In this document: piece after piece, positions 6,830 through 63,748 of the stretch | How the letters are laid out: every line of letters starts with the position of its first letter | Position numbering within the stretch: position 1 is the stretch's first letter | Source: a virus | Virus record (IMG/VR): IMGVR_UViG_3300045988_079613 | DNA length: 64,000 nucleotides | Direction: 5' to 3' (one strand) | Translations under genes and position numbers: made by a program | The notes under the pieces: generated by a model | What the model was told of the DNA's origin: nothing | Databases searched by the model: none | What the model saw: only the letters and a program-made list of their open reading frames with translations

Positions 6830-6860
6830 GGGCTGTTGTGAAACAGCCCTATCTTTTTAT
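6830..6860. terminator. bidirectional rho-independent terminator between convergent modules
   Basis: GGGCTGTT-GTGA-AACAGCCC (6830-6849), A-rich before and T-rich after. TAA 6822-6824 (plus gene) and TAA 6857-6859 (minus gene, if TAG is read through) flank it. Confidence 0.75.
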
Positions 6861-7456
6861 TCTCCAAGTATCTATTTTTTGTAATAATTTCTTTTACTTT
6901 GTATATCTTTTAATTCCTATATATTCCTAAATGGAGTAAGTTTTAAAAGGTTGCGCTCTTGTTCAGTCCATCCTTTATAAGCACCTCGCTTAATAGTAGC
7001 ATCATAATAAGTTTCTTTTAACCACCAGTACTTAATCCTTTCATATAATAAACTAACAGGATTAGAGAATAATTCAAACATATTACTAACATAGTCTGTA
7101 ATAGCAGAAGGTGACTTGATAATAGATGCCATATCCAGAAGATTATATGGAGCTAATGTTTCAAATTGCGATCTTATTATAGTATATGCCAGTAGTTGTT
7201 TAATGATGTTTTTCTTGTCGTCGTCCGCTGACTGCTCTAATAGCGGTCTAAGAAACCAAACAAGGCCTCCATATAATATACCTTCAAAGACCAATCTAGC
7301 CAAATTTTCTCTTACTAGAGGATCTTCTTGATTAAGTCTTTTATAAGTCTTAATTACGTTTTCATTGTTTTCTATAGCATTATCAAATAATCTTACTACA
7401 GTTTTGAATACTCCTTCTCTGTATCTCTAAGCTTGATAATCCCATTGTCTTGTCAT
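6857..7456 (-). CDS. hypothetical virion-module protein, or the C-terminal part of the 7523-11278 ORF
   Basis: Same reading phase as 7523-11278, separated from it only by one TAA (7523-7525). First ATG after that TAA is at 7456. Three in-frame TAGs (7421-7423, 6917-6919, 6872-6874). Ends at TAA 6857-6859 next to the terminator. Confidence 0.4.
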
Positions 7457-7522
7457 TAACCATCTCTCTTGTAAAACAACCGGTAAATATTGTCTGTGCA
7501 TCATAACAAACTATCCTGCCCA

Positions 7523-10500
7523 ATTAGCCAAAATCACAGGCTTTTGTAAAGAAGTAAGCTACCCATCGGCTGATTGTGCTAGAGTTTTGGCAATATAAGC
7601 TATTTTATTCATAGCCTCATCTACTGCTTTCTAGTTTGTTTTATCTTTTGCTACCATTTTACCACCTACAAATTCTACAGCATCATAGAATGAAGTTTTA
7701 TTTCCTAGATTCCAATCCATGTAATCGCCGGGAGCATAAGTAGGAAGTTTATGTTTTCTTTTATATTCCTCTCTACTCATAAAAATTTTTTTACCGCCTT
7801 CTTCTACTAGCTTAAAATTATGCATAACAGAAGCAAGAATCTATCCTTTTACTACATGATCCATTAATGAATATGGACCGAATGCCCAATGTTTAGTGAC
7901 AGCATTAACTAATTGCATTCTGTTTGTAGCATTTGGATTAATTTCTGCACCTATTTCGAAAAGTTCCATAGCTTGAGTTATGAATGTTTTTTTCCTAGAA
8001 ACTCCCAGAACGTTCGATATAGCAAAAAATGAATCTGCTACAATATCAAAGAACGCATGACCAGCATCTATAGGATTGTAATATCTTTGTATTAACATAT
8101 TTGTAATATGCTAATGTAAAGCTGTATAAGCCCCTGTTAACGCACAAGCAAGATTTAAACCTAGATTTCTAAGAGTACCTAACATCTTAAGTATAGATAA
8201 CATTTTTGTAATGTTAATTTCTCTTGGTTTACTTATATCATAAGTAAGTCCAAAAACATTGCCTTTATACGGAATCAAGCCTAATACTTTTCCAGTAGGG
8301 TTATCTCCATATCTTACACTAACGTCTTGAGTTTTTATATCATACAAATTCATGTCTATAAAGTTTTTAACGAATTTGTATGTATTACTGTTTCCGGTTT
8401 TTTCCTCTCCTCTTTTGTTAGTGTATTTAATACCTTGTACGTATCTTTTTAATATTTCTATTCTAGGTTGTATTTGAGTTTTATTTTTCCAACTTTCACA
8501 CGACTTATAGAACTATATTACTGAACCAACTAAATCCGCAGTTAAATACTCAGGATTATCTAATCTTTTAAGATAATATTGAGGTATTACATTTAATCTT
8601 TCTCCATTAGGTTTAGTGAGAGCTCTATTAAAACCAACATCATCGTTTCTACATGATATAAGATCTTTCCAATAATCAATAAACCCTTTAAATGCTCCAG
8701 ATATATAATTTCTTTTCCAACCTGCATGTATATATTTTAACAAACTACCAGATTTCTGTGGAACCCTATAAGGATAAGTCTTATGCAGGTTAGTTAACTT
8801 ATCGTTAGATTCTTTTATAGTATCTAAGATAGCTTGTCTAAGATTCTTTAGAGCCTCATTATTCATTACTTTATGATAATTCTTACTATTATCATAAGAC
8901 TCAACTATTTTACCATCTTCTATTACTTTAGATTTTGGTATCCAGTATTCATTCTATAAGTCTGGGTACTTTTCCTAAGTCTCATAGTAAGATTTGTTAT
9001 AGAATTTGGATTCTTTAGATACCTCTAGCCAGTTACTATTAGGAGCATATTCTATCAAACTTTTATCCTTTGGTACTACTTTTGTATACCATGCTTTTGG
9101 ATTTTTAATGTCATAAGCATTAGCTTTTAGCCACATTTCAGCAGATTCTGGATCTTCTAATACTACATTATAGTAATACTTTTTAAGATCCCTATACCAC
9201 TGTTCTGTTGGTATTGTCTCTGCAATGTCCTCAAATTTGGCATCTCCTTCTTGTATTTCAACTTTTTTGTTTTTTCTAATGATAGACATCTATCTAGACA
9301 ATCTTTGTATAGCAGCTTTAGAATTAGCTGACATATGATCTATGTCTATATTACCCGTCATATCATCCCTATGTTGATTTAATATAGATCTGCGCCTTTC
9401 TTGTAGTTCTGCGTATACAGGACCGTAATATTTTTTTTCTAGCTTTTCTAGTTTCTGATAAAACTCATCTTTATAGCGTACTTGAGAATTTCGTTCTAAC
9501 CATTTCTGTTTTTGTTCTTTTGTCAGATTTGGATCAGCCATAATTTTAGCTTTTTCCTCCTCATATGCTTTACTATTCTTAGTCATAGTAAGACCTTCAG
9601 ATAACTTCTTATTCAGTTCCTATAATTCTTCAGCTATTTTAAGCTTCTCTCCTTGCTTTTTAATACCTGTAGTATCATATAAACTAGCCAGTTGTTTTTT
9701 CTCAAGTAAATAAGCTCTATATGTGTTATATTCCTTATCGCTAAGTCTATCTAGATGTGCTATACCAGCAGAATCTCTAGTTTTATCTACTAGCTGTCGT
9801 ATTTTTAATTGAATCTCCTCTCTAGCTGCTACCGTACCTTCACTTAAATGATTAAACATATCATAATACTCTCTAGTATATCTTCTATCTGTATGTTTAG
9901 ATAACCATTCATTTCTTCTCTTATTATACTCAATACGCAGCTATCTATTTTCTGGAGCTTTTATATCAGTAAGATCTACACCTAATTCTGATGCTATTTT
10001 TTTCATAGCATCTGCATAGTTCTTTTCAAATTTACCATAGTTTCTAGCTCGTACTATATAACCAGTAGTATTACCATCATCATCTACTTCAAATAACATT
10101 CTCTGATTATATTTTCCAGCTTTACTAAGTAAATCCTCAAGTTTTCTTATAACCTGGTAAGTATTTCTATTTGTTTCTTCTTCTGCTTTATTGATTAAGT
10201 AGAATATTGTCTTAATAGAATCATTGTTTATCTTATCACCAGCACCTATATAGTATGTAAGCCAAGCTATATCTCTCTAAGATGGTGATGGATTAGACAT
10301 TGAATAGTCATAGATAGTTGAGGACTTTACTTCTAGACCTACTTGCTTTAAATTCTATCTAGCATTATCAGCTATTTTACCTTTTACTATAGAATAACCA
10401 TCAGTAAGCATAGCTTGGTAGTCTTTAGCTCTTTTAAGCATTCTATCAAGTATATATTCACCACTACTATCTTTTCCTATTATTTCTCTGTAGTTGTCTT

Positions 10501-11278
10501 TATATATTAATTGACTTACTATCTCATCTACTATATCATTATAGAAACCAAAGAAGTTCTGATCTAGATCATTCAACTTAGTATCATCTATGTCCAGTCC
10601 TTTTCTACGGACATTAACGAGATATTCGAAGGTAGGTCGCAATTCAAATCTTAAATTAGCTAAAAATTCATTAATGTTATCTAAATCTGATTTAAGACCT
10701 TCACTAATATTTGCAATTAGCCATTCTGATTCTTTTTTTATCTTAGTTCTAAGTTCTGCGTCAGGATTAGTATTTACTTTTAATCTTGACTATAAACCTT
10801 TCAGTATCTTTACATTTATGTCTCTTAAAATACTATCTAGTTCTTCCTTTTCTTTAGAATTATAATTATCTTTTGTCTATTCTAATCCTATTTCTAAGTC
10901 ATTGTAAGCCTAATCAACGCGTTCTCTTAAGTCTTTATCTGTGTCAAAAAAAGACTTAGCTTCTTCACTTAAAGAATCTTGTGATTGATACTCTAACACC
11001 TACTAAGCAGTTGGTTCTATAGTTAAATCTTTATAAGTATTCTTAAAACCAATTAAAAAAACTTTAGATTTTTCCCTGATAGCCATTTTAGAATCATTGT
11101 TAAAATGACTTAAAAGATCCTAATATAACTTAGAATCTTTACCTTCACTATCAAACTCTAAGCCATAACCATTATTTTCAGATAAGACATAATAGGCAGC
11201 ATCATAGCTACCTAATATGTCAGTATACTCTTTTAACTATGCCTTTATTTCAGGCAATTCTGTTCTTAAACACGTCAT
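7523..11278 (-). CDS. large virion-associated protein (about 1,251 aa with TAG read as sense)
   Basis: Nine track ORF fragments (7631..10642) share one phase. Every gap was hand-translated: only TAG interrupts. ATG 11278 overlaps the upstream TGA (ATGA). Confidence 0.6.
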
Positions 11279-14200
11279 GATTTCTTACAATGTTTTTTAC
11301 GTTTTTTACCTTCTTCTTTAAGGTTATTCAGATACTCATTTACTTCTGTAATACCTGTTTCAGAGTCCTACAAGGATCCTATAATATCATCTACCAACTC
11401 TGTAGAATCAAAATAGGATTCGTCAGGCATTGCATAATCTTCTCCAAATGTATCATTAGCTTCTTCAATTCCTCCTAACATTTGATCTATTTCACCAAAA
11501 TCTTCTATTGTAGTAGAATTATCCGAAGTATCTACAAAACTTAAAGAAGGATCGCTATCAATTGATTCTGGATCAGATTGTATTCCACTATCTCCAAATG
11601 ATTCAATTAATTCATTTTGAAGTTCTTGATCTAAATTGGAATACTCCTAAGTTTTACCAACTTCAATATTAGAATACTACTCATCCTTAACAAACTGAGA
11701 ATCTTTAATAGTTTTAATATATTTATCTACTATACTATCTATATCCTCAACGGTTTGTTTGATCATTGTGTCTGTAAACTTGTTATTCTCGAATGCAGAT
11801 TGTTCTGTACCATTTTTATATAACTCATATATAGAACTTGCTCCATTATTGAAACCTAACTTAGGTATAGCAACATATACAATGCCGATAGTATTACCGT
11901 CTGCATCTACTATTTGTCCAGATCTCTGGTATAATACCGTATTAGTAGATCTAGAACCTCCTATTTTTACAAACTTATTATTCTTATTTATGTCTGATCT
12001 ACCTAATGCAATAAATACAGTATTCACAGAACTATTAGTACGGTCTTTAGAACTAGCTAGATACATTGTATTAGATTTAGATTCTTCTCCATATCTAACA
12101 TCTACTTTTGGTATATACAATGGAACTACATCATTATCTGCCCAGTAATTTCTTACCATATTTAAATAGATAGAATCTGTTAGTTCTTCTAAAGTAGAAG
12201 CATCCTAAATTATATCTATATCATTCCTTATCAGTTTGTTCATTGCATCTTTTATAGAATCTAAATATCCAATCTATTGTTTGTATTCCATTGGAACTAC
12301 ATTAAAGAATGAATTAGGAGTTCTATTATCATAACTAGTAACAAATGCATATTTTACCAAATCTTCTGCCAACTCTCTGACCATTTCGTCATCATTTGTA
12401 AGAAGATCGTAAAATGCTGACCTAAGTCTATCTTCATAATATCTCGAATTATTTAAAGAAGAAGTAGCAGTAACTATTTTGTTAGCTTTGTTTTTATTAG
12501 ATATGGTAATACCTTGTAGATAATTTAATAAATCGTTAGTAATATTGCCCTATTCATCTACTAAAGTAACTAAATTAGGATCCTATTTATTCTTTCTAAT
12601 ATAATTCTTGACAGCATTAAGTCTGCTAGCTATATTGTCCTTACCAAATGCCATACTGTTTAACTGTTCATCAGACAATCTAATATCAGTACCAGCTATC
12701 ACTACTTTAGCACGAATTATACTCTCTACTTTCTCATTTATTTTTTTCACTAATTCTTTATTACTAGTAGGTCTATATAACTATATAGAAAGAGAACCAT
12801 TAACTTGCTATGGATAATTACCACCTCTTAAATTATGCATTATACTCGTGAATATAGTCTTATAACCATTGGTAGCTCCAAATACTTGAGTTTTAAGTAT
12901 ATTATTAGCTAAATCCATAGCATATACTAATTTCTTATTTAAGAACGTCTTATTAAAGTAGTCCTCAAGCCCATTAAGATCCTCTCTACCTTCAGTATCA
13001 GGAGTAGAGAAGTCCTGTTGATGGTCTTTTATAAATGTCTGATATGAATTATAAAAGTTCTATAATTGAGTAATGTTATTACCATACTTTTTAGTATCTA
13101 TCTGAGAACGTTGAACTAAGTCTGCCATAGTTTGAGCATCTCCACTTAATTCATTATAAGCTGTAAGTACGATTAACTACATTTTAATATCCTGTGGAGT
13201 TACCTAGCCTCTTCTAAATGCATCTAATGTACGAGACAATCTATCCTTGTCAAATGCTAATTTTTTATCTTCATCTGTTATCTTAAGAATAGATTCCTTA
13301 TAAGACTATGATATAGGATAATTATTTAACATTTTAGTATATTTGTCTATCAGTCTACTAATTATAGTATTATCATACTACTGTTTAGATCCAATAGCAC
13401 CATTATTAGCAATCTTAATATTAGCAAATTCCTTTAATATAGGTTGAGCTAAGAAGAAGAACGTATTTTCTCCCTTTCCACCACGTAACAATAAACTAGT
13501 CATATTATATGTTACTTGATTCACATTAAGTTTAATAATGTAAGGATCTTTAGCTACATCGACATGAGCATTAATCATTGCAGATAACCAGTCTAATATT
13601 TTGAAACCATCCTGTCCATTGATTTCATCAAATTGACCAAGACCATAAATATTGTTATGTGAAAATTTCATATGTAGATGTGTGGCTTGAGTCAAGCAAT
13701 GGTTAGTAGAGTTAAGAGCAAAAGGTGCTATACCAGCTTTACCCCAAGTATATTCCATCTTTCTATACTCTTGGAACGATGGCATTAATTCATACATATA
13801 ATCTGCTTCTTTCATCTCATCTACACTTACTTTTGGAAGTATTTCCTTAGTAAGGATACCGGTTAATGTATCAATAGATGCTCTAGTTTCAGACAATGTT
13901 TTTTCATCAGATATTACTAGCGTATAACTATCTAACAGTTTATTTATCAGAGCTCCTTTAGATTGGTCAGAATAGGTTTTAGCATCTTCTTTCCAAGTAT
14001 ATCTCTGATGCGTATTAGGATCATACGAATATGTAGCTATATACAATTTATCAATATCAAAGTCAGAACCAGTCATAGCAGTAAATTCATCAGGTACTAC
14101 TATGGTATCTCCGGTCTATGCTGGTAAAACATCAGCTACTATGAAAGAGAAAGTAGATGACAAACCCTGAGTAGGTATACGATAACCTATACCATATGGA

Positions 14201-17200
14201 TCACTTTGACTACCTATTATATTATTATCCAGCAACCATTTTCTTATTGCTACGTAACCCTATTCCTATACATCCTATGGTACTACATCTCTAAAGAAGT
14301 TAGTACTAAGCATTACTTCCATACTACCTCTTTTAGGATCGAAACTAAGTTTTTTACCATCATTAAAAGGTCTAGTATCTTCGTTAGCATCTGTTATTAC
14401 ATCATTAGCTTTAAAACCAAATGATGCCATTTGAATAGCAGAACCTCCTGGAGTATTTACGTCTATTACTTCTTTATTTATTAAAGAAATTATTTTACTT
14501 TCAATCCAATTACGAACGCTAAGTGCTGCTATAGGAGCTTTAAAGTTACCCTTACTGTCAAGTTTTAATGCATCTATTATTTCTTGAGACATTCCATTTC
14601 CAGTAGCTTCTTCTACTAAATATCTAGACAAAGCAGCTTTATCTATAGAACCGTCTAATTTGAAGAATCTACCTTTCTTTTTCTTTCCATTGATAGTTCC
14701 TCCTTTTAAAGAAGTATAACCTAACGTAGACAATGCTTTAATACAACCAAATATATCCTTTTTTATTTGAGATCCAGATACATGCTTTCCTTTGTTATGA
14801 CCATAGTATCTATCATCTACTACATTACCCATACCAATTTTTATCGCTTGAGTACCGAATGATCTATCTGTATGTTCATGTGGATCTGTATTAAGCTGCA
14901 ATCTTAACTGTTTAATATCTTGAATTCTAGTTGTTAATCCATCATTAAGTCTTTCAACGGCATTACCATTCGTAACTATCATAGTAGATGGCTTATTTAA
15001 GCCTTCTTTATTGAAACTTGTATTTCTGTTGTCATTATAGGCTTTGAACTTATCTTGAGGAGCACCGACCTTAACTGCAGATTCAAACAATAACATGTCT
15101 ATCACACCCAATTCTTCATTATTCATTCTGTCATATAAATACTTATTATCCGCTTTGGCTAGTATCTTAAACATAGGGAATAATGCCATTTTATCGAATG
15201 TAGGTACATTTAATTTAGCTACAGAATCATAGTAATCACCAAAATACATCATCTTTAATGGTTTTATTGATGCTCTTAGAGCTTTACTATACAATTCTGG
15301 ATTACTAAGAACATCATCTGAAGATTCTAGTATATTATATGCTTCTTCTATCTCAGGAGACCATTCTCCTAAAGCTTGCATAATTCTCTTATACATAGCT
15401 GGTCTGATATATACAGCAGCATCTGCTTGATTTATATTGCCACTATTATTCTCATCATCATATGCATAAGGATTTGCAGCTTTCTCAGACTGTTTATCAA
15501 CAAATTTCTTGGAATCATCAGATAAACTGTCATAAGATTCTTGCATTCTATCTTCATTCTTAGTAGCATCAAATAGCTATTTATCTGTCATGTCTGGATG
15601 CTCTTTCTGTAACATAGTTCTTATGAAAGATGCTCTAAATATCTATTTCAATGAATCGTGATATTCAGACCCTATATTGTTATCCTACATAACAGCACTA
15701 ACGAATTTAGTATCATTTCGTGGATCTCCTTCTCCCCAGTATGTTCTGAGATTAGTACCAGTAGATAATACAGAAGACAAACGTTTGATTTTATCCACAT
15801 CTCTCTGGAATACACCTACTTCTTTGCTGGACTTCCACTTATAAAAAGCAGGATCTCCAACAAAACACTTTTCTACTTCTTCTATAGATATTGCGCAATT
15901 AGTTACAAAATTAGCTATTATACTATATATAGCATCATTAGAATTTATATCGTCATAAGATGATTGAAACTATGCTTTATATTTTGCATATATATTAGTA
16001 GGAAGATTACCAGAAGTAAGTTTACCAGATGAATCCCTAGATATTACTCCTAGTTTAATAGCTTCTTCTACTTCTTGATCTACTCTTCTTAATAACATTC
16101 TATTAAGAATATCATGCATACCAGCTACATCTTCTATGAACAATTTTCTGATATTGTCTAAAGTTTCATTAATTAACTTTGGATCATTGCTTTCTTCTGC
16201 AAATTGTAATAGATCATTTAATGAACGTATTTCTCCATCAGGCATTATTATTTGGTTAAAATATCTGAATCTACCACCATTTCCGCCTGGTTTCATTTTA
16301 CCATCTTTCCCTATTTTGCCGTGATAGTTAGAATAATATCTCGATCTTCCTTGTTCTACGTCAGACTTTGTATTATAATATTCAGTAATAGCATTAAATT
16401 CGTCTACAAAATAATTATAGAATATATTTAAAGTATTTTTACTAAATCTAAAATCAACTGGTACTTCTATTGTTTCCCCTTCAAAATTTGTAGTTGTAAC
16501 AACAGAATGTAGAAAATCTTTAGGAACATCTATTCCTTCTATGCTATACCATGTCTTTTTATCAGACATTGTAGGTAAAACTAATCTATTATTTTCAGAT
16601 AAAGTTAACTTTGTAATATAATCCTCCAATGGAGTTATACCAAAATAATCCCTACTAGTATCTGTTAACTCATCATTAATAGCTAATAAAGTATGCAGTT
16701 TTAATTTAGGTTTATTTTTTCCTAGCAGTGCTTTTACAATAAGACTATTCTTACAATAAGGAGTATTGTTTAAGTTCTGCAATTTTCCATATGCGTTAGT
16801 GTTTAACCATCTGATCTAATCGGACATATAGTTATTCTATGTGATAGGATATACTAAGCTACCATCTGCCCCAGTTACACTAAATTCTTCTGGAGTAGGA
16901 TGTGTTTCTCCATATGCAATAGCCATTAAGTTCAATACGCTGTTTGGATTATAATAATTAAATATCTTATCTGCACTAATAGTCACTCCTCTAAATTTAG
17001 TAACTAAAGTTTTATTAGCCGCCATTGCTCTAATATTCTCATATACAGAGTTTCTTATAGAATTTATAGCTGCTCCATTTTTAGAGTCTGTATTCTTAGT
17101 TCTGAATATCAAGTTAAAAGCGTCTACACCATCTATTCCAGTAGATTCCTTAGTACTTATACTACCTAATAAATAAGTAAGAGCATCATTGTCAAAATTG

Positions 17201-46548: not shown

Positions 46549-46562
46549 AATATATTTTATTC

Positions 46563-47900: not shown

Positions 47901-48091
47901 TTTTCTGTGCTTATTAACTATTTTTTAACTGTGTATAGTGCTGGCATTTCATCAAAGTTTCACTCTCATTTACACTCTTGCGAGGAACAAGGTTACGCTT
48001 GTCTATTTCCTCTTGAGGAACCTCTTGCAAGTCAATTGTTGGGAATACAGTGTATTTCATATGCTTTACTATTGAATTACTATCAGACTAA

Positions 48092-49906: not shown

Positions 49907-50279
49907 AATTATTTTTAATTAGTTTCTAATTCTAAATTAATGTAGCATTCTTTATTAATACTGTGTAATTCACTTCAGGAGGTACTGGAGTTGATATCTA
50001 TAGTTTCCATTCCCCCAACACCACAGCTCCTAAATCTGTATATAAATTTATTCTAATCCAAGAATCTTTGAACTCTGATAGATCTATCTTATTAGTATTA
50101 GAATAATACCTAATAAGCTTACTATCTCCATTAGCAATTACCTTTACTTCTATTATTCCGGAATACTTGGCAGGTTCAATGGTAGCATCTTTCTATTCCA
50201 CTAACTAACCATTCAGATTTGGAAATACGTAATAAGCCTGTGGATTAATAAATATAGGATTATATAAAATTGTTTTCAT
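49890..50279 (-). CDS. hypothetical protein (about 129 aa)
   Basis: Its ATG 50279 lies inside copy 1 of a 24-nt direct repeat. 5 TAGs. TGA 49890-49892 overlaps the next gene. Confidence 0.35.
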
Positions 50280-51740: not shown

Positions 51741-54700
51741 TTATATTTGTCTCTAGAAATCAGACCCATTTTCAACCATCCAAGCAGGACAATTAAATGG
51801 AACAACAGTACCACCAGACATTACATATCCAGAAGCCATATTAGTGTATTTAAGCTGTACAAATTTATTAGGAGTTAGTGTTATTATACTCAAACTTAAT
51901 GAACCGTTATATAAGAATTTACCAACTCCTCCAGGTAAATCACTTTGAGAGTTCTCAGTTACTACTCTCAGTGCATAGTTGCCAGTACCAGTAGTAGAAG
52001 TATAAAATATATATAATGACATACCTTCGTAGGCGTCATTAAAAGGTAATGATATAGTGTAATCGGTAGCTCCGACATCATCTATTACCATTAACTACTT
52101 ATTAGATGTAATATTAGGTCTATATACTGAGGTGCTGCCAGTTAGCTATGAGTAGTATAACTTATCATATTCCTCAGCACTTCTCATTCTTATTACACCT
52201 CTATTCATATCTACCTGTCCAGTGACAGCGTTCACCATGAAATTAGGAATAAACACACTACTTATATAAAATTCAAACGATACGCTTAAAGATCCAGTAC
52301 CAAACTGTGCTATCTCTATAGATGTAGTATAGTCTCCTCCACTGCCAGCTTCACTAGACGGTAAAGTATATTCTACTGTAGAACTAGTTATAGGCATCTG
52401 TATGTACTCTAGATTCCCATTTTTAATATATTTGTATTGCAATTGTACAGTTGCCGAAGGGTAAGTTTTTACTCCTTTCACTTTTATTTTAAACTCAGGT
52501 GTCTATTTAGTAGTACTAACTATATCTGTATTAACTCCCCACATCATAGATACAACAGCATTACGTACAGTTACCTTATATGTCTCTATTGATACGTCAT
52601 CCACCCAGTTGGAATCTGAGGGCATGGTAAAATGGTTAGTGAAATTAACTGTATTATTGGTAAAATTCTAATAATCACTAGTAGCATTTCCTCCACCGTC
52701 AACTCCTTCTTGGCTGAACATGTAGTCTCCGTTGAATATAAATTTACCCATACTACCACCATCCGCAATTAATATCTTGGTAAACAAAGCTTCGTATTTA
52801 TCCATTAAGATCCATGTAGCATTACTGCCATTGGTGTTCCAATCTTGTTCTGGAGTCTTTCCAGTGCTAGTGCCCAACCAATTACCATTTTTGTTCATCA
52901 CATAGTACTCATCATTAAAGAATACATACGGTGCCTTTTCATCAGTACAAGTGTATGTCTTACTATCACTGTAAGTACCTACTGGATATATTATCCTACC
53001 CTTGTTACCATCAGCTCCTACCCACTTAGTCCATTCGTAGACTTCATAATCTGTACTTTCTACAGGGCTAGTCTTATTATATGCTATACCAATATATTTA
53101 GTATATCTATTAGGTGTATCATATATGTCAGCATCAGAAGTAGGTTCGTTATCTGAATATTTTATCCAGGTATACAACGTTGCTCCTGGTTCTCCATCCT
53201 ATCCTGTTTCACCACTTATTCTTACAGGAGTACTCCAACCAGATTCCAGTTCATCATTAGGGGTTATAACTGCCATTATCATCCATAGTGTTTCTATATC
53301 TTCATCTACAGAAGGTACTGTAGTATTCCATCCTGCTGGATTACGGACCTACTGAGGAGTACCGGGAGAATAACCTGTAGTCACAGCTTTGAATCTAAAT
53401 TCAGTATATTTACCGTCCTAAGCTACTCCATCTTTACCATTTAATGGAACTACCTCTCCCCAAACATGAACACTATTGGTTTCTCCGTATACTAAACCTA
53501 TACATTGCCACCATTGTCCCGTAGAAGAATCTGGAAAGTCAACCCAACCGTCTAATCCTCCGGGTTGAGGAACTCTAAAAGTAGGTTTATCTGGTTTAGT
53601 GTTTGACTACTTATATACGTAAGTCTTCCAATTTGGAACAGTTCCAGGTTGTCCGTCTTCACCATCCTTACCATCTCTAATAACGTATATAGTTTCTGTA
53701 TCCACTGTTACTCTATTGCCTGATCTCTCATCGTATAAAGTAAATGTCACCTGAGCTGTAATGGAACTACTGGCTACTACACTACCTATTGAATAATTAG
53801 CTTCACCTCCATTATCTACTTTGTATGTGAACTTATACCCAGTCGGAGTAGTACTTAGAGTTTTAATAGTATCTCCTTCTATTAATTGAAGATCGCACCA
53901 AACGGAGTTTACTTCATTGCTGTCATCTTTAAATCTATGAATAGCGTTTACTGAAGGTAATAAAGAATATACTTTTGCATTCTCTCCATCTGCTCCTGGT
54001 CTTATCTTATTTATAGTAAATATTACATCTCTAACATATTGAGTACCTTCATTAGAAGCTTTAACATTTACAGGAATTCTTATAACATCTCCAGTAGTAG
54101 AAGATATGCTTGTTACTGTAATTACTCCTGTTGATGCATTTGCATTAGCAGTTATTCCTTCTACAGATCCTACAGCTAGACTATCTAGTACTAACTTAGT
54201 AGTACCGTAGTACATGCTTACTGTGGTAGTTAATGGCAATCCAGAAATTACATTACCTTTAGAATCACAAGCAACAGACTGCATATCATTATCAAAGTCT
54301 GTTACTAATCCTCCTACACCATCAACTCCATCCTTACCATCACTTATTTTGAATACAGTCTCTTTATCTACTAGAGTTTCTCCGTTAGTAAGTAGGAATG
54401 TTACCTTTTTATCTATAGAAGTAACAGATAAATTCTAATCTATAGTATAGTTCTCTGCTAAGTCTTCGTCTATCACGTATTTAAATTGGAATCCGGAAGG
54501 AATAGAAGTGAGCATAGTAGTAACTTTTCCTTGGGTCTTCTTAATCCCACAGCTGATAAACTTAACATCAGCTACTCCTTTTTTGTCCACATGCATAGCA
54601 TCTACAGAAGGCACTAAAGAATATAATATTGCATCCTGACCATCTGCTCCTGGTTTAATTTTATTAATAGTAAGATAAGTGGTTCTTTCTATCAACTCAT

Positions 54701-57104
54701 TGTTCCATACACATGAAGCATCAATAGGTATACGAATATTAGTAGGAGCTGAAGGAGTTATGGTACTTACTGTTATTATACCAGTCTTTCTATCTGCTGT
54801 AGCTGTAATTCCATCTACTTGACGTACACTTAAGGAACTAAGATTCAGTTCGGTAGTACCATAATACATAGTCAATTTGGTAGTAACCGGCAATCCAGAT
54901 ATTACAGCCCCTAAATTATCTGTAGCTACCGATTGAACTTCATTGTCCAAGTCTAATACGATACTACCTAGTCCGTCTAAACCATCTTTACCATACTTAG
55001 CCCATAATGAAGGTCCTGTGTAAGCTCTCCATCGACCTCCTCTAAACTTTCTTTGACACACCCATTCATACTATAGTTCTTTAGTAACTCCTTGCGGGTT
55101 ATCAGTCCAACCATCTCCTGGTATATATTCAATACCTTCGAAGTCTCCAGTTTCTTGATATGCGTCTGAATTAGTATTATTTGGAGTAGGATTATCAGGA
55201 TCATTGTTCGTAGCGGTTCTATAGAATATATATTGAACTCCATCTCCGTCCTATCCGTTCTCTCCCCACTTAGACCATAATGCAGGGGTGCTAAATTCTC
55301 CCCATTTATTATCCTTTTTACTTCTGGTACTAACCCATTCTGCTTTTAATATAGAAGTTACTCCCTTAGGATTATCTGTCCAATTAATAGGAATAAAATC
55401 ATCTATGTCTTCTCCTACAGGAGTTTCAGGAGCATCACCTACTCCCGAATCAGTTGTACGAGTATAAATAAATTCTACTGAATTACCATCAGTTCCAGCT
55501 GCACCGTCTTGCCCAGATATCTTTATAGGTTCTGACCATTCTCCTTGTATATTAGGATTAGATGTAAACACTTTATTGGACATCCATACAGGTGGAGTTA
55601 ATTCTTCGTCATTACTAGACCAACCTTCTGGATATACTATAATATTAGTATCAGCATCCCATTCACCTCCTACTGGTTTTTCTGGTTTTTCTATACTAGA
55701 TTTATACGCAAACACCGTGTTATAAGTATCCCCAGGTTCTCCCTATCCAGGTTCACCTTGTGGCCCTTGTTCACCGGTTATTCTTATTGGGCCCTACCAT
55801 TCCTTGACTAACTCGTTGTTCTCATCTATAAGAGCATTAATCATCCACATAAACTCACCTGGAGCTAATGTAGGTGGAGTATCTTCCCAACCAACAGGGT
55901 TTCTACTAGTTTTATTTAAGGCCGGTATTATATTTATGGATACACTCTTAGAATACTTGAAATCCATATAGGTATTAGTTTTACCGTCTTCAGCTGTGCA
56001 CTATACAGGATCAGACCAAGTGGCTACAGTATTTGTACTACCGTCTACTAAACCCATAGACATCCACCATTTACCTTCAGCGCTAGGACCATCAAACCAA
56101 CCATCAATACCGGATACTCCAGGAGTAGGGGTAACAAAAGTAGGTTTAGATGGCTGCAATTCTGCTTGCTTAAATACCCATGTATTCCAATTTGGTTTCA
56201 CAGATTGCCCTGGTTTTCCATCTAATCCATCTTTACCAGGAGGTCCTTGTTCTCCTTGAGGACCTTGAAAGCCTCTTTCCCCTCTTAAACCTTGTGCACC
56301 CTATGGACCTACAAATTTAGCCCACACGTAATCTAATGGATTATTACTTGGCTCTTCGGTTTCTTTATTGGAAGCAATACCAATATACTATGAGTCTTCT
56401 TCCGGTTGATCTGTCATCTAGTCTCCATATTGAGAAGGAGAATATTTAATCCAAGTAAATTTGGTATACTCATTAGTAATATTAGGCGTAGAAAGATCTA
56501 TCTTGTTATTATTTACTACCGCTATTAAGCTATCCTTAATTGAATCGTAGTATATCTATCCGTCTTTATAGGTACCTGTAACATTCCCTTCTATATGTTC
56601 TGCTACATCAATACCCTATGGTAATATCATAGTATCGTTTAATACTACGTCACCGTTTACAAACTTACCTCCTTCGAATGACAATATACTATTGTTTGGT
56701 ATAGTGATAGTTTTACCTTGTAAATCAAATTCGTATTGAATTACATATATAGTATCACTGCTATCAAAATCAGTTTGTAGCAGTATATTTTTGTTATTAA
56801 CTATTCTTTTTCGTAGAATTTTTCTACCTAATCCACTATATTTGCTAGGATTATACTCTTTATCAGCAAATTTAAGACTAAAATCATCATCTACTTTTAT
56901 ATCCTCACCATCAGCATATACTACACTTATAGGCTGCCAATATGATTCGTTAGTCAAACTTATATTACTTGGTACTTCTTTTATAGATATGAAAGACCTA
57001 TATTGTTCGTCATAGACTAAACATAATCTATCATATTCTTTAGAAGAATCATGCTTACCGTCGCAAGTAAGAGTAACTTTACCTAATAATTTTGTGTATT
57101 CCAT
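51741..57104 (-). CDS. very large tail fibre/spike with tandemly duplicated domains (about 1,787 aa)
   Basis: Eight same-phase fragments (51753..57104). N-terminal LGRKILRKRIV...TIYVIQYEFDLQGKTITIPNNSILSFEGGKF is typical of phage fibre/beta-helix N-termini (from memory). Paralogous ~190-aa modules at 53607-54284 and 54435-55061. Only the 55251->55061 gap was hand-checked. Confidence 0.6.
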
Positions 57105-57991: not shown

Positions 57992-58963
57992 TTAGGCAGC
58001 AATGAAGTTTTCGATACCTTTTGCTACAATAGAAGAAGCAAAACCAGTTGAATGCTTAACATACAGTTCAGTAGTAAGCGGAGTGGTTTTGATGTATTGA
58101 TTATCATTACTCAGATACTTATTATCGTTTTCTACAGTAATATAATCGTAAGTAGCATCTTGCTCTACCATTCTATCTTGTACTACTTCAGGATAAGCTC
58201 CAGTAAATACATGACCTTGGTAGCCCATATAACGTACTTCAGCGTCACGTACTTGTTTCCAGTAACCTTTACCAGGATTACCAGGAGTTTTAACAATAGT
58301 AGCACCAGGGATAGCGTCAGGCTGATTACTCAAAATAGCACCAGGAATAGTAACATACAGACTAGCTTCCATATCTACTACAGAATATTCATTCAATGAA
58401 TATACACCGTTATTGTCATCTTTTTCCATTGCAGTTAAAGTGATAACTGCAGCAGATGCAGACGCATTAACTCTACGGTTAGCATGTTTGTTAATCTTTT
58501 TAACGATAGCAGCAGCTAAGTCAGCAGCAGTAGTGTTAGCAGCAAATACTTCGTATGTGTGCGTAAACTGACCCGGAGCTTCATACATGTCTTTATATAC
58601 TATTCTTAGTACATATCTATGACCTGCAATGATAGTAGCATTAGTAAGAGTAATAACGATCTTGTTCTGAGCTGGAGCTACATATTCTCCAATAACTGCA
58701 CTTGGATTGGAATTCTTCTGAATTTCATTACCAAATTTAATATTAGCCTTATCAGCTACCTTACCATCAGGCATAGTAACTTTTACTTTATTCTGAGCTA
58801 CACCTATATACAAAGAAGTAGCCTTAGCTGCATCAGTAGCAGTTTTGATAATAGCTCTATTCTGGTCAAACAGAGCAACATCACCCGCAGAAAGTGCATC
58901 AGCAGTAGTATAAGCTGACGGAAGATTTTTACCGATCAAAACGGTATTTACGTGTTGAATCAT
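57992..58963 (-). CDS. abundant virion structural protein candidate (323 aa, TAG-free)
   Basis: Uninterrupted, Ala/Thr/Val-rich, higher GC. It has its own upstream intergenic region and a strong terminator. Confidence 0.65.
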   Translation of the reverse strand: MIQHVNTVLIGKNLPSAYTTADALSAGDVALFDQNRAIIKTATDAAKATSLYIGVAQNKVKVTMPDGKVADKANIKFGNEIQKNSNPSAVIGEYVAPAQNKIVITLTNATIIAGHRYVLRIVYKDMYEAPGQFTHTYEVFAANTTAADLAAAIVKKINKHANRRVNASASAAVITLTAMEKDDNNGVYSLNEYSVVDMEASLYVTIPGAILSNQPDAIPGATIVKTPGNPGKGYWKQVRDAEVRYMGYQGHVFTGAYPEVVQDRMVEQDATYDYITVENDNKYLSNDNQYIKTTPLTTELYVKHSTGFASSIVAKGIENFIAA

Positions 58964-59060: not shown

Positions 59061-59726
59061 TTATTGTTCATCAGATTTCTCTGATCTTTGTGTTGAAGCA
59101 GCTTGTGCTATATACATATTTACAGCCGCATCTACAATTTCCTAATGAGTATGCTCAGGTAATTCTGTGTACTCTTTGGTTAAATTCTAACCTATATTTT
59201 TTGCAGACCTTAGAAAAGTGAGGGTATATTTGTGAATAGCATAATTACCGTCAGTATACAATACAATATTGTTTTCTGTTTGTAGTCTAACTGGTCTGGC
59301 CTAATTATGATGTAAGTGATATTCCGAAAGACTGTTTTCCAATATTCGATCTATCGTTTCAATAGTAGCTTCAATAACATCTCTAGTTTTAGTTATTAAG
59401 TTAGGACATTTATTATCAAGTATTTTAATCTAAACTTCTTCACCTAAACTGAATAAATAATTGTTGGGATATTGTACTATCCACTTGTTATCCTATACTT
59501 TAAAGTCTAAGGAATTATACGTATTTGTCTATACTAATGTACGTAACTTATCAGATAATTCTTGATTCTATTGAAATACTCTATATACCTGTTTTACGTA
59601 TTCATCTTTAGCTTTATTGATATAGAAGAATATAGTGTCTGAAGGTAACTTTACCTTTAGATTATAACCAGGAACTATAGTACTCAACTATCTTTCAAAT
59701 GCTATTTGAAATTCTCTTTCTGTCAT
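59061..59726 (-). CDS. hypothetical head/neck-module protein (221 aa)
   Basis: ATG 59726 lies 2 nt after the upstream TAA. TAG read-through to TAA 59061-59063. Only the start and the C-terminal ~35 codons were checked codon by codon; the interior was read once without coordinate checks. Confidence 0.45.
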
Positions 59727-59728
59727 AA

Positions 59729-60427
59729 TTATTCAGATAATTGGTTTAACTGTAATTTACTAGAGGTTCTTTGAGATTCAATATTTTCTAATGCTAACAC
59801 TACAGCTCTATTTATTACTTCTGACATTACATCATCCGGTAAATCTAATTCACCGTCTAGATTAGTATAGTCAAATTGAGTAGGTTTCTTTATATAAGTA
59901 ATATTTATTGCATACTTATTATTAGATGGAGCGTATTCGGTTTGTTGCATCAATATTGGATCAACGTACAGTAACATTTTATTATCCTCTAATACTACCA
60001 CAGGTACCTCTACCCAAGGTATATTGTTATACGTCTGTTTGAATAACATTGCAGTATTATGATCAACAATCATGCAGTTAGCAAAATTATTACCATACTT
60101 TAGTGTTACTGCCCATATTGTTACTCTATTCCCATCATCATGCACATTATCTAATACAAATTCATTATATGCATTCTTCTACATTATTAGATTTTCATCT
60201 GTACGTATGAGCTTATCTAATTCAGATATTCTCTATAATGATCCTTCAAAACCTAACTTTAGTATATTGTTACCACTTATTTTGTTGCTTATTACATCAT
60301 CCTAAGCCTAGTTAAGAAATAAATCTATCTCCTAAGGTAGGAATGCAGGAGCTCCCCCAAAGGCAACTCCCTAAGCATTCTTATCTAGGATAACTTTAAA
60401 CTAAATATGTGCAGTACGGTTATTCAT
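59729..60427 (-). CDS. head-tail adaptor-like protein (232 aa, 7 TAGs)
   Basis: Hand-translated. EIDLFLN-TAG-A-TAG-DDV and FEGSL-TAG-RISELDKL read as FLNQAQ and SLQR, resembling adaptor/neck protein motifs (from memory). ATG shares a base with the upstream TAA (TAATG). Confidence 0.4.
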
Positions 60428-61179
60428 TATTTAGACTTAATTTCATTTAAGATTGCCATCTTAATATCATTATTCTTCTTATCTTTTAAATAAGCTATTA
60501 CATCTTCCAAACCATTACCAATCAGATCTGTACCAAAGTAATATTGAGCCCTATTCTTTCTAATGATATTCTTTGCAATAGCTTCTTCAATTACAAAGTT
60601 TATTTCTTTGTTTGGGTTTTCTACCCATTTAAGTATATAAGATCTAGGATCTTTTTCAATCTGTTCTGTCAATTTAGCTTCAATAAGCTCATTAGACATG
60701 TTTTCAGATCTAATTCCATAAAGTCTTAAACACTTGCGCATGTCTTCAATAGACATCTTATCCATTTCTCTATACGCTTCACGTTTGATCTTATTGATCT
60801 TATTAGCTTCTTCAGCTTCACTGTTCTTGTTAATAATAACATAATCAGTAGCAGGTGTTATTTTATTCAACCCATTTGCCACTCTCTTATGTCCTTTAAG
60901 GAACAGATATTTTAGTTCATCTTCAGGTTTATCGGTATCAAGTAATACATCCTTTTTACCAATCTTAATGGCAAAAGTATCCCAATAGTTACTATTAGGT
61001 GCCAAATTACCTTCTGCAAAACCTAATTCTTTTTCTAATCTAGCTGCATCTTCTGCAGTTAAACCAGTATATAAATTACCGGATCTAGTCCAGTATGAGC
61101 TTACATAATCATAACATGTAGGCCATTTTGTAATCCCTGTCCAAGGATTTGATTTAATTATTCTAACGATTATTTCCAT
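60427..61179 (-). CDS. hypothetical capsid-module protein (250 aa, TAG-free)
   Basis: Uninterrupted ORF between the HEG and the adaptor-like gene. Confidence 0.6.
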   Translation of the reverse strand: MEIIVRIIKSNPWTGITKWPTCYDYVSSYWTRSGNLYTGLTAEDAARLEKELGFAEGNLAPNSNYWDTFAIKIGKKDVLLDTDKPEDELKYLFLKGHKRVANGLNKITPATDYVIINKNSEAEEANKINKIKREAYREMDKMSIEDMRKCLRLYGIRSENMSNELIEAKLTEQIEKDPRSYILKWVENPNKEINFVIEEAIAKNIIRKNRAQYYFGTDLIGNGLEDVIAYLKDKKNNDIKMAILNEIKSK

Positions 61180-61183
61180 AATA

Positions 61184-62197
61184 TTAAATATTAGATTGTT
61201 CAGTTAGTTGTTCTTTATATTTCCAGATATACTTAGCGTTATTCCACGCTCTTTTGTTATTGGGGTCTATAGGATTTTGTAATTGCCTTTGAATTCCTCT
61301 TCTATCACAGTTGGATATTCTACTAGCTTCAGAGATAGAAACATACTCCGTTATCAAATTATTATTTTTATCATATTGACAAATAGATTTAGCTACCTTT
61401 AACCCATTTTCTATAGCAATTTGTCTTTGCTTTTCTGTAACTTTTCTATTTTTTCTTGATTCTAAGTCTGCTTTTCTACAAACTTCAGAGATAGTTGGTT
61501 TCCAATTAGGATCTTTAGCAAATAAACTAGAAGGGACAGTAGTTGGTACGTCAGGATAATTCTCTTTATACACCCATATATATGGGTTTACTTTAGATTC
61601 TGTAATATTCTTTCGCTTCAATGCATTCGACAAAGTAGTAGTATGTATTCCTGTTAGTCTAGAAGCCTCGTTTACTCCTGAAAATTCTTGAATAAAATTA
61701 CCTTCTTTAGTATATTGTAATACTGCTTTTTTTCTAGTACTACCAATCTGGCCGGATTCCCAATAAGCTTTTCTTGCATCAGTTACTACTTTACCAGCTT
61801 CTGACAGCTTTAACCTAGTAGTTTCTGTTATTTCTCTTCCTAAAGCTTTCTGACGAATTTTATCTTTAGTTTCTTCAGTATGTTGTCTACCGAAAGTTCC
61901 ATCACCCCCTTCAGTCATATTATAACCAAATTCGTCTTGTATAGAATTATATTTAGAAATATAATATTGTTCTTTTTCTGTGAGTTCTTCCCAATTGTTG
62001 CAGAAATCCACGAGTTCTATTGAAAAGCTCTCTTTACCGTACTTTCGTATAGCGTTGTGTAATTTAAAAGGACAGCCGTGCTCGGCATTGTAGAGGTGTT
62101 CTTTCCACCGAGCACTTACTCCTTTACTTGTAATTCCTATATATACTTTATTATTAATCTTGTTAGTTATTTTATAAACATCGTAAGAATGCATCAT
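61184..62197 (-). CDS. GIY-YIG homing endonuclease with NUMOD3/IENR-type repeats (337 aa, TAG-free)
   Basis: VYKITNKINNKVYIGIT...RWKEH is a GIY-YIG core. GRQHTEETKDKIRQKALGRE looks NUMOD3-like. Two IENR-like modules end in IWVYKE and IWKYKE. Confidence 0.8.
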   Translation of the reverse strand: MMHSYDVYKITNKINNKVYIGITSKGVSARWKEHLYNAEHGCPFKLHNAIRKYGKESFSIELVDFCNNWEELTEKEQYYISKYNSIQDEFGYNMTEGGDGTFGRQHTEETKDKIRQKALGREITETTRLKLSEAGKVVTDARKAYWESGQIGSTRKKAVLQYTKEGNFIQEFSGVNEASRLTGIHTTTLSNALKRKNITESKVNPYIWVYKENYPDVPTTVPSSLFAKDPNWKPTISEVCRKADLESRKNRKVTEKQRQIAIENGLKVAKSICQYDKNNNLITEYVSISEASRISNCDRRGIQRQLQNPIDPNNKRAWNNAKYIWKYKEQLTEQSNI

Positions 62198-62278
62198 AAT
62201 ATATAATTTTTAGTTATACATTATATAACGCAGAACTTGCCGCAAGGTTCCTAATAATTGTATAATAAAGTTAGTTTA

Positions 62279-63748
62279 TCACTCAGCTTCCATGATCAGT
62301 TCCCCACACGCACGTGGATCCCTTAACATTATTCCCATTTCTCCAAGGAAGAATACAGTATAACCATCCTTACCATTAGATCTCAGAGTATTCTTAGAGT
62401 TTGCATAACCAGACGGAGCAACTGCACCACCAGTATACCAAGTAACAAACTCGCGATCTTTACGAACTACTTTTACGATGTTAGCTTCACCATCACGTCT
62501 ACCAAGATCTAAGAATGTCATACGATATGACTCTAGAGGTTTCAACGTAACAGGATGTAATTGACGATTATAAGTAACATCATCATACAACGGGAAGTAC
62601 TTCAGAGTCAATTCAATACCATTAGTCATTTTGTAAGTCTTAAACTGACCACCAAAAGTAAGATTATCACCAGAACCTGTAACAAATACTGTGTCAATAA
62701 GATTCATATTGACCATCTTTTCTTTCAAGATTCTATCAAATTCTCTCATACCCATCTCACCGGTCAATGCAACAAACTTACGTTCATTAGTACCAAGTAC
62801 ATTATATGACAGATCAAATAAGAAGTCTTCTAATAAGGCTGCAGTAAGTCTAGTATAGTAACGTTTGTTAGACGGAGCAATCTGTTCCAACAAACCAGCA
62901 CCCATAAATACAGGACGCCCGTTAGTACCTTTCAGATTACAAGTACCATCTTTGTTTACATTGTTCTTCATGTAAACCAACATTCTTTCACATCTCTTAT
63001 ACCACTCTCTCATGGCAACCCATTCTTGGTAGTCTGCCCACAGATAAGATTTCTTACCTGTCTTAGGATCCTGCAATGCAATAGCCATTACTGTAGAATA
63101 AGCTGAACCAGTAATATCATAATTGATACGAATTGTAGTCAAATAATTACGCATCTTAAATGCAGTATTATAGTTCAGGATATCACCTTCTTCACTATAT
63201 TCTTCTACAGCAGAAGCTAGACGTGACACTTGGCAACCAGGTTTCAGGTATTCAGCAGGAATATAAGAAGTAGGTTGGCCGTCTGCAATATAACAGGTAT
63301 AAACCCATAGATTGCCATCTTGGTAAGGAGCACCTGCAACACGTACTTGGAAGTCTTTGTTATCAAATTCCAATACAGCAGTAGGTCCAAACCAATTATC
63401 TTCCAGCCACAACATGATTGGAGTATTACCCAAACCAGCTGTAGTCGTATCTGTGATGGCTGCGCCATTCCATTTAGCATCTCTAATTGTTACTGCTCTG
63501 TCAGCGTCAATCATTACATTCCACTCCCAACTAGGCTGATCAATGGTCATCACATTACCAAGACCACCAGTGAGCATATCCAAAGAAGTGTTGTAACCAT
63601 TATCTTTAGTACCAAATACATAAGACAATACGGTAGCAACCTGATACGGATTCTATTGTGAAGCTGCTGAAATTTTAGCAGTATCAATCAGATCACTGAA
63701 CCACTTGCCTTTGTACAAAACCAAATTGTTTAATATATTGTTATCCAT
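62279..63748 (-). CDS. major capsid protein candidate (489 aa, single TAG at 63653-63655)
   Basis: The track ORF starts at an internal TTG. The frame extends through one TAG to ATG 63748 (MDNNILNNLVLYKGKWF...). Size and position fit an HK97-fold MCP of crAss-like phages. Higher GC, HEGs on both sides. Identity is inference. Confidence 0.55.

Follow-up and report, generated by a model that had tools for sequence, protein, structure and literature searches.

Evidence for genetic code 15 in the late genes of a gut crAss-like phage with a standard-code early module

There is very little doubt that the DNA analysed here comes from a crAss-like phage whose late genes use genetic code 15, with UAG read as glutamine, most likely by a phage-encoded tRNA with anticodon CUA, and whose early module is compatible with the standard code. 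The window, a 64,000-nucleotide stretch (IMG/VR record IMGVR_UViG_3300045988_079613), is judged from its sequence to be about two thirds of a gut phage genome (Crassvirales, Suoliviridae, Loutivirinae, near Buchavirus). A head protein of family phrog_11589, a giant virion RNA polymerase (RNAP) matching PDB 6VR4 and the conserved late-gene order place it in the Crassvirales and Suoliviridae, and it is collinear with the phage genomes cr56_1, cr125_1, cr10_1 and cr1_1. The recoding of its late genes is real but already known for this phage lineage, and has been validated by proteomics in related phages.

TAG as a sense codon in the late block

On the minus strand between 6857 and 63748, TAG is a sense codon. 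Start-to-stop coverage of this block is 58% under code 11, 60% under code 4 and 98% under code 15, a gain that bears out the original prediction that TAG is read through in the minus-strand late module. Stop-to-stop open reading frames (ORFs) of at least 100 aa on this strand add up to 32.9 kb under code 11; treating TAG as sense raises the sum to 57.6 kb and lengthens the longest ORF from 609 to 4,489 codons. With TGA as sense there was no gain (34.3 kb in total, longest ORF 609 codons), and this reading was rejected along with TAA as sense, the longest ORF remaining at 609-629 codons in these readings.

The 34 genes of the block contain 261 in-frame TAG codons, or 33% of all its glutamine codons. 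TAA (30 genes) and TGA (4 genes) are still the terminators in all 34, TAG in none, and the gene junctions are compact or overlapping; the seven stop/start junctions quoted in the prediction are all exact. Its statement that every long frame is broken by TAG holds for most genes but was overstated, as 9 of the 34 are free of TAG and recoding is therefore uneven. Three genes described as invisible under the standard code (34492-34914, 34938-35594 and 46563-47900) indeed offer only minus-strand standard-code ORFs of 52 aa or less. For the first of them a start at 34938 is more likely, giving a protein of 148 aa as in the cr56_1 orthologue. The gene at 11275-24738, for which about 78 TAG and no TAA or TGA had been counted by hand over 4,487 codons, contains exactly 78 TAG, no TAA and a terminal TGA only. 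Its other two frames hold 169 and 333 TAA and 60 and 218 TGA (229-551 of the two together), and from base composition the probability of finding no TAA or TGA in the coding frame is about 1e-130, in agreement with the claim that chance could not account for it.

A reading of the TAGs as true stops, in a block that is decayed or pseudogenised, misassembled, or made of genes split by introns or frameshifts, can point to the introns, inteins and homing endonucleases that do occur in crAss-like phages (Yutin 2021) and to two homing endonuclease genes within the window, but is already refuted by the frame statistics: decay would bring in all three stops and frameshifts, yet TAG alone, never TAA or TGA, interrupts the frames over 18,417 codons, 118 TAG sites are kept in cr56_1, and homologues run across the TAGs unbroken.

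Read-through yields recognisable proteins, the major head protein, a reverse transcriptase and the virion RNAP all matching known families. The features of the block are as follows.

6857-11278, minus strand: large protein, 1,473 aa, 23 TAG; last gene of the block, its ATG overlapping the TGA of the RNAP gene (ATGA)
11275-24738, minus strand: giant virion RNAP-containing protein, 4,487 aa, 78 TAG (PDB 6VR4, E 1.5e-26)
24750-32852, minus strand: three virion proteins, one of 557 aa with 12 TAG, one of 750 aa with 8 and one of 1,390 aa with 24
32845-33567, minus strand: GIY-YIG homing endonuclease, recoded, TAG at 5 of 8 Gln codons
33569-34486, minus strand: tail tubular protein, 305 aa, TAG at 9 of 14 Gln codons
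34492-36843, minus strand: four small virion or unknown proteins (34492-34938, 34938-35594, 35727-36293, 36337-36843) with 3, 5, 7 and 2 TAG
36797-38280, minus strand: two genes without TAG (0 of 21 and 0 of 2 Gln codons) inside the recoded block
38316-39456, minus strand: lysis genes, a LysB/spanin-like protein (TAG at 6 of 10 Gln codons) and a holin (1 of 2)
39570-40577, minus strand: reverse transcriptase of a diversity-generating retroelement (DGR), 335 aa, TAG at 7 of 12 Gln codons (phrog_1423, E 6e-125)
40712-40802, minus strand: DGR template repeat (TR), intergenic, between the target gene and the reverse transcriptase
40834-42075, minus strand: DGR target, Mtd-like tail protein, 413 aa, no TAG; variable repeat (VR) at 40856-40946
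43150-47900, minus strand: tail fibre, 1,132 aa, 16 TAG, and a 445-aa protein, 7 TAG
48092-49906, minus strand: tail-spike-like protein, 604 aa, TAG at 0 of 11 Gln codons; no cr56_1 counterpart
51741-57104, minus strand: collagen-repeat-containing virion protein, 1,787 aa, 20 TAG
57992-58963, minus strand: 323-aa protein, no TAG; TAG is also missing from its orthologues in two other recoded subfamilies
59061-60427, minus strand: two small head-proximal proteins, one with 8 TAG and one with 7
60427-62197, minus strand: 250-aa protein without TAG ('RecA' in the cr56_1 annotation) and a GIY-YIG homing endonuclease, TAG at 0 of 15 Gln codons
62279-63748, minus strand: major head protein, 489 aa, TAG at 1 of 13 Gln codons (phrog_11589, E 6e-137)

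Standard-code gene calling shatters this 57-kb block and hides whole genes; annotation pipelines must therefore use code 15 here. The giant protein was identified by a PDB sequence search, its match 6VR4 being the DNA-dependent RNAP gp66 of phage phi14:2, while PHROG scans of its TAG-free segments returned no matches. It carries a DFDID motif at aa 3559 and shares 32% amino acid identity with gp39 of cr56_1. The 1,390-aa virion protein is 98% identical to a 'virion structural protein' of cr56_1. The TAG-free gene pair at 36797-38280 is present in cr1_1, cr10_1 and cr125_1 and absent from cr56_1.

The DGR is recognised from a reverse transcriptase, a TR/VR pair whose mismatches fall at template adenines, and a VR at the 3' end of its target. 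The 91-nt TR and VR show 22 mismatches, of which 21 fall at a coding-strand A, and the VR lies within the final 113 nt of the target gene. A DGR whose reverse transcriptase is itself recoded may be a new detail.

Glutamine as the residue at TAG

The residue encoded by TAG was addressed by comparison with cr10_1 and cr1_1, two relatives from the Boorivirinae (Suoliviridae) whose standard code status was confirmed. Their late genes are orthologous to those of the window and in the same order (24-59% amino acid identity) but have no in-frame TAG, code 11 sufficing for full-length ORFs. Homologues were found by tblastn against the phage genomes and then aligned locally. Rather than ending at the TAG positions, they align continuously across them without changes of frame. 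At 204 aligned TAG sites the residue in the homologue is glutamine in 25.5% of cases, compared with a self-conservation of 26.4% at canonical glutamine codons. The log-likelihood at these sites is -544 for glutamine and -636 for lysine, the next-best residue, a margin of 92 natural-log units. This residue spectrum supports TAG as glutamine, and with it the translation table 15 that the original prediction had proposed. A database search with three concatenated recoded proteins, carrying X at each TAG, gave one weak match only.

It is exceedingly improbable that TAG is a sense codon for some other residue, such as lysine, glutamate, tyrosine, tryptophan or pyrrolysine. ARAGORN does call the CUA tRNA of the relatives described below 'Pyl', purely from its anticodon, and the standard-code homologues also have lysine (9%) and glutamate (7%) at TAG sites. 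However, the spectrum at TAG sites is that of canonical glutamine codons, with glutamine ahead of every other residue by at least 92 log-likelihood units. At close range, the TAGs that are replaced in cr56_1 (alignment segments of more than 85% identity) become CAG in six cases, CAA in three, TAT in one and GAG in one, so that glutamine codons account for 9 of the 11. RefSeq types the CUA tRNA as tRNA-Gln, and proteomics of two related crAss-like phages detected peptides with glutamine at TAG (Peters 2022).

Suppressor tRNA, the early module and the timing of late expression

A search of the 64-kb window for tRNA genes found none at all; its nearest relatives have one with anticodon CUA just beyond the homologous stretch. 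The genome of cr56_1 encodes a tRNA(CUA), annotated as tRNA-Gln in RefSeq, and a pattern search with its anticodon arm led to three IMG/VR contigs, 96-98% identical to the right end of the window, that carry the same anticodon arm together with a tRNA-Met. Nine IMG/VR stretches covering the window's right end with short flanks, three of them from these contigs, contained one tRNA-Met and no suppressor tRNA. In the closest relatives the tRNA(CUA) lies about 9-10 kb past the right edge of the window, on the same strand and where the recoded block begins; a TAG-free group of small genes lies on one side of it and the TerL, portal and head genes on the other. The transition is visible in cr56_1, where the 12 genes upstream of the tRNA contain 2 TAG, and TerL, portal and the subsequent genes 10-15 each. 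From relatives that are 88-98% identical, though not the same genome, it is inferred that the window's own genome carries such a tRNA, which would presumably be charged by the host GlnRS.

Recoding is limited to the late genes, and the replication block on the opposite strand is compatible with the standard code. Its relevant features are as follows.

32-6824, plus strand: replication module (P-loop protein, primase, resolvase, ATPase, MRE11-like phosphoesterase, Cas4-like exonuclease), standard-code-compatible
3147-3527, plus strand: gene of the Holliday-junction resolvase; its codon 4 is TAG (3156-3158)
3170-3193, plus strand: end of the primase gene, with TAG at 3170-3172 and TAA at 3191-3193, six codons on

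In the plus-strand module TAG accounts for 1 of 44 glutamine codons, compared with 33% in the late block. The primase TAG is probably a genuine stop backed up by the TAA. Throughout 6857-63748, that is, in the head, tail, lysis, DGR and virion RNAP genes, UAG is decoded as glutamine, with UAA and UGA as the sole terminators. The replication genes avoid TAG and are translatable in a Bacteroidales host with an unmodified standard code. Late proteins would appear only after the suppressor tRNA, most likely phage-encoded, has accumulated, because every recoded gene reaches its first TAG within 6-163 codons. Recoding may thus act as a timing switch, a model that has been described before (Borges 2021).

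Were UAG decoded as glutamine constitutively, by the host or a host suppressor, there would be neither a temporal switch nor a role for a phage tRNA. The window's lack of a tRNA fits such decoding, as do certain recoded crAss-like phages without a detectable suppressor (Yutin 2021, Borges 2021). It is nonetheless very unlikely, since the replication module shuns TAG, the primase apparently uses it as a stop with a TAA behind, and four early genes of cr56_1 have a TAG 0-8 codons ahead of their annotated ends. Close relatives moreover encode their own CUA tRNA, and published surveys predict standard-code hosts (Borges 2021).

The resolvase is the sole recoded gene of the early-strand module, and no alternative start exists upstream of its catalytic N-terminal region. 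A TAG at codons 3-10 is found in about 71 of 80 IMG/VR relatives and in cr56_1, as well as in a second subfamily, the Uncouvirinae (cr125_1, cr115_1), in leader peptides that are otherwise variable. The resolvases of the standard-code phages cr10_1 and cr1_1 have no amber codon. Conservation in close relatives (about 89%) is not above that of TAG sites in general at that distance (about 90%). It is the comparison across subfamilies that is suggestive, as only 11% of late-gene TAG sites are common to Loutivirinae (cr56_1) and Uncouvirinae. The resolvase TAG might serve as a translational gate that holds back a nuclease that cuts DNA branches until the code has switched.

Within the late block, the spanin-like and tail tubular genes are among the most TAG-rich. 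In each of three separate recoded subfamilies TAG is avoided by the major head protein and its 323-aa neighbour. If the avoidance in capsid genes is true, suppression may be costly or incomplete. The positions of TAG within genes are not more 5'-biased than those of CAA and CAG (KS p = 0.14), and the base after TAG hardly differs from the average codon context; neither result specifically supports a gating design.

These distributions bear on a purpose other than timing that the same decoding could serve, the sabotage of host protein synthesis, defence proteins included, by a suppressor tRNA that reads through host UAG stops, with late TAGs as a tolerated by-product, as hypothesised previously (Yutin 2021). 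Timing is the preferred purpose, and sabotage in its place is rather unlikely. In favour of sabotage, TAG is without significant 5' bias and is avoided in abundant head proteins as if mildly costly. Against it, recoding is especially heavy in some lysis and tail-tube genes, matching the spanin and tail-tube families reported to be preferentially recoded (Borges 2021), and the only recoded gene of the early strand retains an amber codon directly behind its start. The two purposes could also coexist. Simple handles on the timing-switch question could come from the resolvase amber, from the head genes with their few TAGs and from the TAG-rich genes for lysis and the tail tube. The amber gate of the resolvase and a costly or incomplete suppression behind the avoidance of TAG in the likely abundant capsid proteins may be undescribed, a reading that is somewhat less likely than not to hold.

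Comparison with known recoded phages

The phage cr56_1 (NC_055890.1; Buchavirus faecalis, Loutivirinae) is a collinear but mosaic relative of the window. The two share 88-96% nucleotide identity over most of 1-6.3 kb and 27.7-63.7 kb, TAG-recoded late genes, a standard-code replication module and the DGR, and the RefSeq record of cr56_1 is already annotated with read-through genes. In contrast, the giant-protein block (6.8-27.7 kb) has only 32-63% protein identity, the tail spikes (48092-49906 in the window) are unlike each other, as are the homing endonucleases beside the head gene, and the two TAG-free genes at 36797-38280 have been found in the window but not in cr56_1. The C-terminus of the primase also differs, ending at TAG in the window and at TGA in cr56_1.

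Dual-coded early blocks of multi-code phages have been described with Mgcod (preprint, 10.1101/2022.06.29.495998). As in that description, the early proteins here are near-identical under codes 11 and 15, and an early-gene end at TAG is followed by TAA or TGA a few codons on, as in the window's primase and the four early genes of cr56_1. Unlike dual coding, the window's resolvase on the early strand requires read-through at codon 4. Genes for a release factor or an aminoacyl-tRNA synthetase, which some Lak, Agate and Jade phages have, were seen neither in the window nor among the annotated genes of cr56_1.

TAG-to-glutamine recoding has been reported in 243 crAss-like phages, the Delta group among them, and chiefly affects late genes (Yutin 2021). 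In the published code-15 crAss-like phages (Yutin 2021, Borges 2021/2022, Peters 2022), TAG encodes glutamine mainly in structural and lysis late genes, as it does here. They likewise have early genes compatible with the standard code and strongly TAG-biased spanin and tail-tube genes, and their suppressor tRNA is phage-encoded. The window does not differ from them in kind, and adds a further example of a documented strategy by which gut crAss-like phages use a tRNA of their own to alter the meaning of UAG late in infection.

Open reading frames and proteins of the late block

At 32.6% G+C the window is AT-rich. Coverage of its minus-strand late block (6857-63748) depends strongly on how TAG is read. 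With a start codon required, start-to-stop frames cover 58% of the block under the standard code (code 11), 98% when TAG is read as glutamine (code 15), and 60% when TGA is read as sense (code 4). Reading through TAG likewise lifts the minus-strand stop-to-stop frames of at least 100 codons from 32.9 kb to 57.6 kb and extends the longest from 609 to 4,489 codons; TGA read-through gave no gain in this measure. The late block then resolves into 34 genes, all terminated by TAA (30) or TGA (4). Together they contain 261 in-frame TAGs, which make up 33% of the glutamine codons, and the first TAG of each recoded gene falls somewhere in codons 6-163.

The original prediction had held that TAG is a sense codon, glutamine, throughout this module, and a direct count agrees with its figures for the gene at 11275-24738, whose 4,487 codons include 78 TAGs and neither TAA nor TGA ahead of the terminal stop. 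The other two frames of this gene contain 169 and 333 TAA and 60 and 218 TGA codons, and the composition-based probability of a TAA/TGA-free frame is approximately 1e-130. Each of the stop/start junctions it quoted was exact, and where it described three genes as invisible in the standard code, minus-strand standard-code frames never exceed 52 aa. Its one overstatement was that every long frame is broken by TAG, since nine of the 34 genes have none.

A megablast search matched the window to the crAss-like phage cr56_1 (NC_055890.1; Crassvirales, Suoliviridae, Loutivirinae, Buchavirus faecalis), with positions 21.1-82.4 kb of which it is collinear, at 88-96% nucleotide identity across most of its length. 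In the giant-protein block (6.8-27.7 kb), protein identity is just 32-63%. The window is another, mosaic, member of a TAG-recoded crAss-like lineage. The CDS annotations of the cr56_1 RefSeq record already have read-through in place. The restored proteins are genuine, and also include a holin, virion structural proteins and homing endonucleases. The 4,487-aa protein contains a crAss-type virion RNA polymerase (PDB: 6VR4, phi14:2 gp66, E = 1.5e-26) with a DFDID motif at aa 3559.

Principal coding features
62279-63748, minus strand: major head protein (phrog_11589, E = 6e-137)
39570-40577, minus strand: reverse transcriptase (E = 6e-125)
32-6824, plus strand: end of the replication module (P-loop protein, primase, resolvase, ATPase, MRE11-like phosphoesterase, Cas4-like exonuclease)

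The boundary of the mosaic is sharp, with 6857-27700 set against 27700-63748, where identity to cr56_1 rises to 95-99% in the flanking late genes. This pattern points to a recombinational exchange of the ejected-protein block. Two segments have no counterpart in cr56_1. The first (47904-50037) holds a TAG-free tail-spike-like gene (48092-49906) and is probably a host-range cassette swap. The second (36474-38263) holds two TAG-free genes with orthologues in the crAss-like phages cr1_1, cr10_1 and cr125_1.

Glutamine at TAG and its uneven use

Four Suoliviridae relatives were fetched, two TAG-recoded (cr125_1 and cr273_1) and two Boorivirinae that use the standard code (cr10_1 and cr1_1). TAG was masked as X in the window proteins, which were then aligned to the standard-code pair. 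These homologues span the TAG sites instead of ending there, and at 25.5% of the 204 aligned sites they have glutamine, as compared to 26.4% conservation for canonical glutamine codons in the same alignments. Over all 20 residues, glutamine had the highest likelihood (-544), followed by lysine (-636). At the codon level, 118 TAGs are conserved in cr56_1, and in segments of greater than 85% identity the replacements are CAG (6), CAA (3), TAT (1) and GAG (1). TAG is therefore decoded as glutamine in the late block. The original prediction had named coding density and homologue alignment as the tests that could refute it; given the code 15 coverage and these alignments, neither does. Its observation is confirmed and its interpretation is supported.

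Several late genes are nearly or entirely devoid of TAG. No TAG is found among the 21 glutamine codons of a gene for a 282-aa protein (36797-37645, minus strand; P = 2e-4), the 12 of a gene for a 323-aa protein (57992-58963, minus strand), the 11 of the tail spike that is absent from cr56_1, or the nine of the retroelement target described below; the major head protein has one in 13. The 323-aa orthologues of cr125_1 and cr273_1 are likewise TAG-free, which extends this property to three recoded subfamilies. The same observation covers L004 (2025-2999) and L007 (5456-6472). The pattern is suggestive of selection that keeps TAG out of abundant virion proteins.

The minus strand carries two genes for GIY-YIG homing endonucleases (32845-33567 and 61184-62197). 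One is recoded (TAG in 5/8 glutamine codons) and the other is TAG-free (0/15), with only 43% identity to the endonuclease at the corresponding place in cr56_1, as if it had recently arrived from a standard-code source.

Early genes, suppressor tRNA and a proposed code switch

In the plus-strand module, TAG accounts for one of 44 glutamine codons. The primase frame reaches a TAG at 3170 and a TAA six codons on (3170-3193), and four early genes of cr56_1 (3294-3770, 8128-8595, 8573-8971 and 11747-12139) have a TAG 0-8 codons ahead of their annotated ends. These TAGs look like true stops with a backup TAA or TGA; therefore, suppression would lengthen the early proteins by a short tail only. This agrees with the "dual-coded" early block that has been described for multi-code phages.

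No tRNA genes were found within the 64-kb window, which ends approximately 9-10 kb short of the position matching the single tRNA of cr56_1. That tRNA has a CUA anticodon and the RefSeq label tRNA-Gln, and lies on the late strand at 92,120-92,199 (7121-7200 of locus L003), with a homing endonuclease gene and TerL directly downstream. Upstream of it, twelve small genes have two TAGs in all; downstream, TerL, the portal gene and gp73 have 10-15 apiece. Three IMG/VR contigs (053977, 006606 and 032928) with 96-98% identity to the right end of the window share the anticodon arm of the cr56_1 tRNA, and in each ARAGORN identified a tRNA(CUA) and a tRNA-Met (anticodon CAT) approximately 870 nt apart. 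In the closest relatives (cr56_1 and loci L019, L042 and L043) the CUA tRNA is 80 nt, a length suggesting that its variable region is unusually long for the Gln type; in more distant relatives it is 74-76 nt.

Most likely, an early standard-code phase is followed by tRNA(CUA)-dependent late translation, which is the best-supported mechanism. The standard machinery of the host would translate the early genes, and translation of the late genes would then be made possible by the phage tRNA(CUA), with host GlnRS as the presumed charging enzyme. We infer that this exact genome carries the tRNA, that the tRNA is charged and that the arrangement has a regulatory purpose. Some support for this timing model comes from the spanin-like gene (TAG in 6/10 glutamine codons) and the tail tubular gene (9/14), which are among the most TAG-rich and belong to the same families noted by Borges et al.; statistics on TAG position and sequence context lent it none. 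An anti-host purpose of suppression, as proposed by Yutin et al., is also conceivable.

Within the standard-code replication module, only the gene for the Holliday-junction resolvase (3147-3527, plus strand) requires read-through. Its TAG is codon 4 (3156-3158), and there is no alternative start ahead of the catalytic N-terminal region. About 71 of 80 IMG/VR relatives retain a TAG at one of codons 3-9, in leaders that are rich in Lys/Arg but otherwise varied. It occurs at codons 9-10 in the Uncouvirinae cr125_1 and cr115_1 and at codon 33 in cr6_1, and is absent from the Oafivirinae and standard-code Boorivirinae compared. The window and cr125_1 have just 11% of late-gene TAG sites in common, so a resolvase TAG kept across subfamilies is suggestive of a translational gate, although this is one site only.

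A complete diversity-generating retroelement (DGR) is found at 39570-42075 on the minus strand.

Repeats and target of the DGR
40712-40802, minus strand: template repeat
40856-40946, minus strand: variable repeat, at the 3' end of the target gene
40834-42075, minus strand: target gene, Mtd-like tail protein

Of 22 mismatches between the repeats, 21 are at coding-strand adenines. The target gene has no in-frame TAG. The reverse transcriptase has seven, and mutagenic retrohoming would therefore be expected only once the code has switched.

These side observations are of modest potential. Late-gene TAG as glutamine is a known phenomenon. Yutin et al. described TAG-to-Gln recoding of crAss-like phages mostly in late genes, often with suppressor tRNAs. 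In the crAss-like genomes of Borges et al. (2021), a single alternatively coded unit comprises the structural and lysis genes and the replication genes keep the standard code, and Peters et al. (2022) identified glutamine at TAG in peptides from two crAss-like phages. From these reports and the annotations of the nearest RefSeq record, the recoding is thus both correct and already established for this group of phages.
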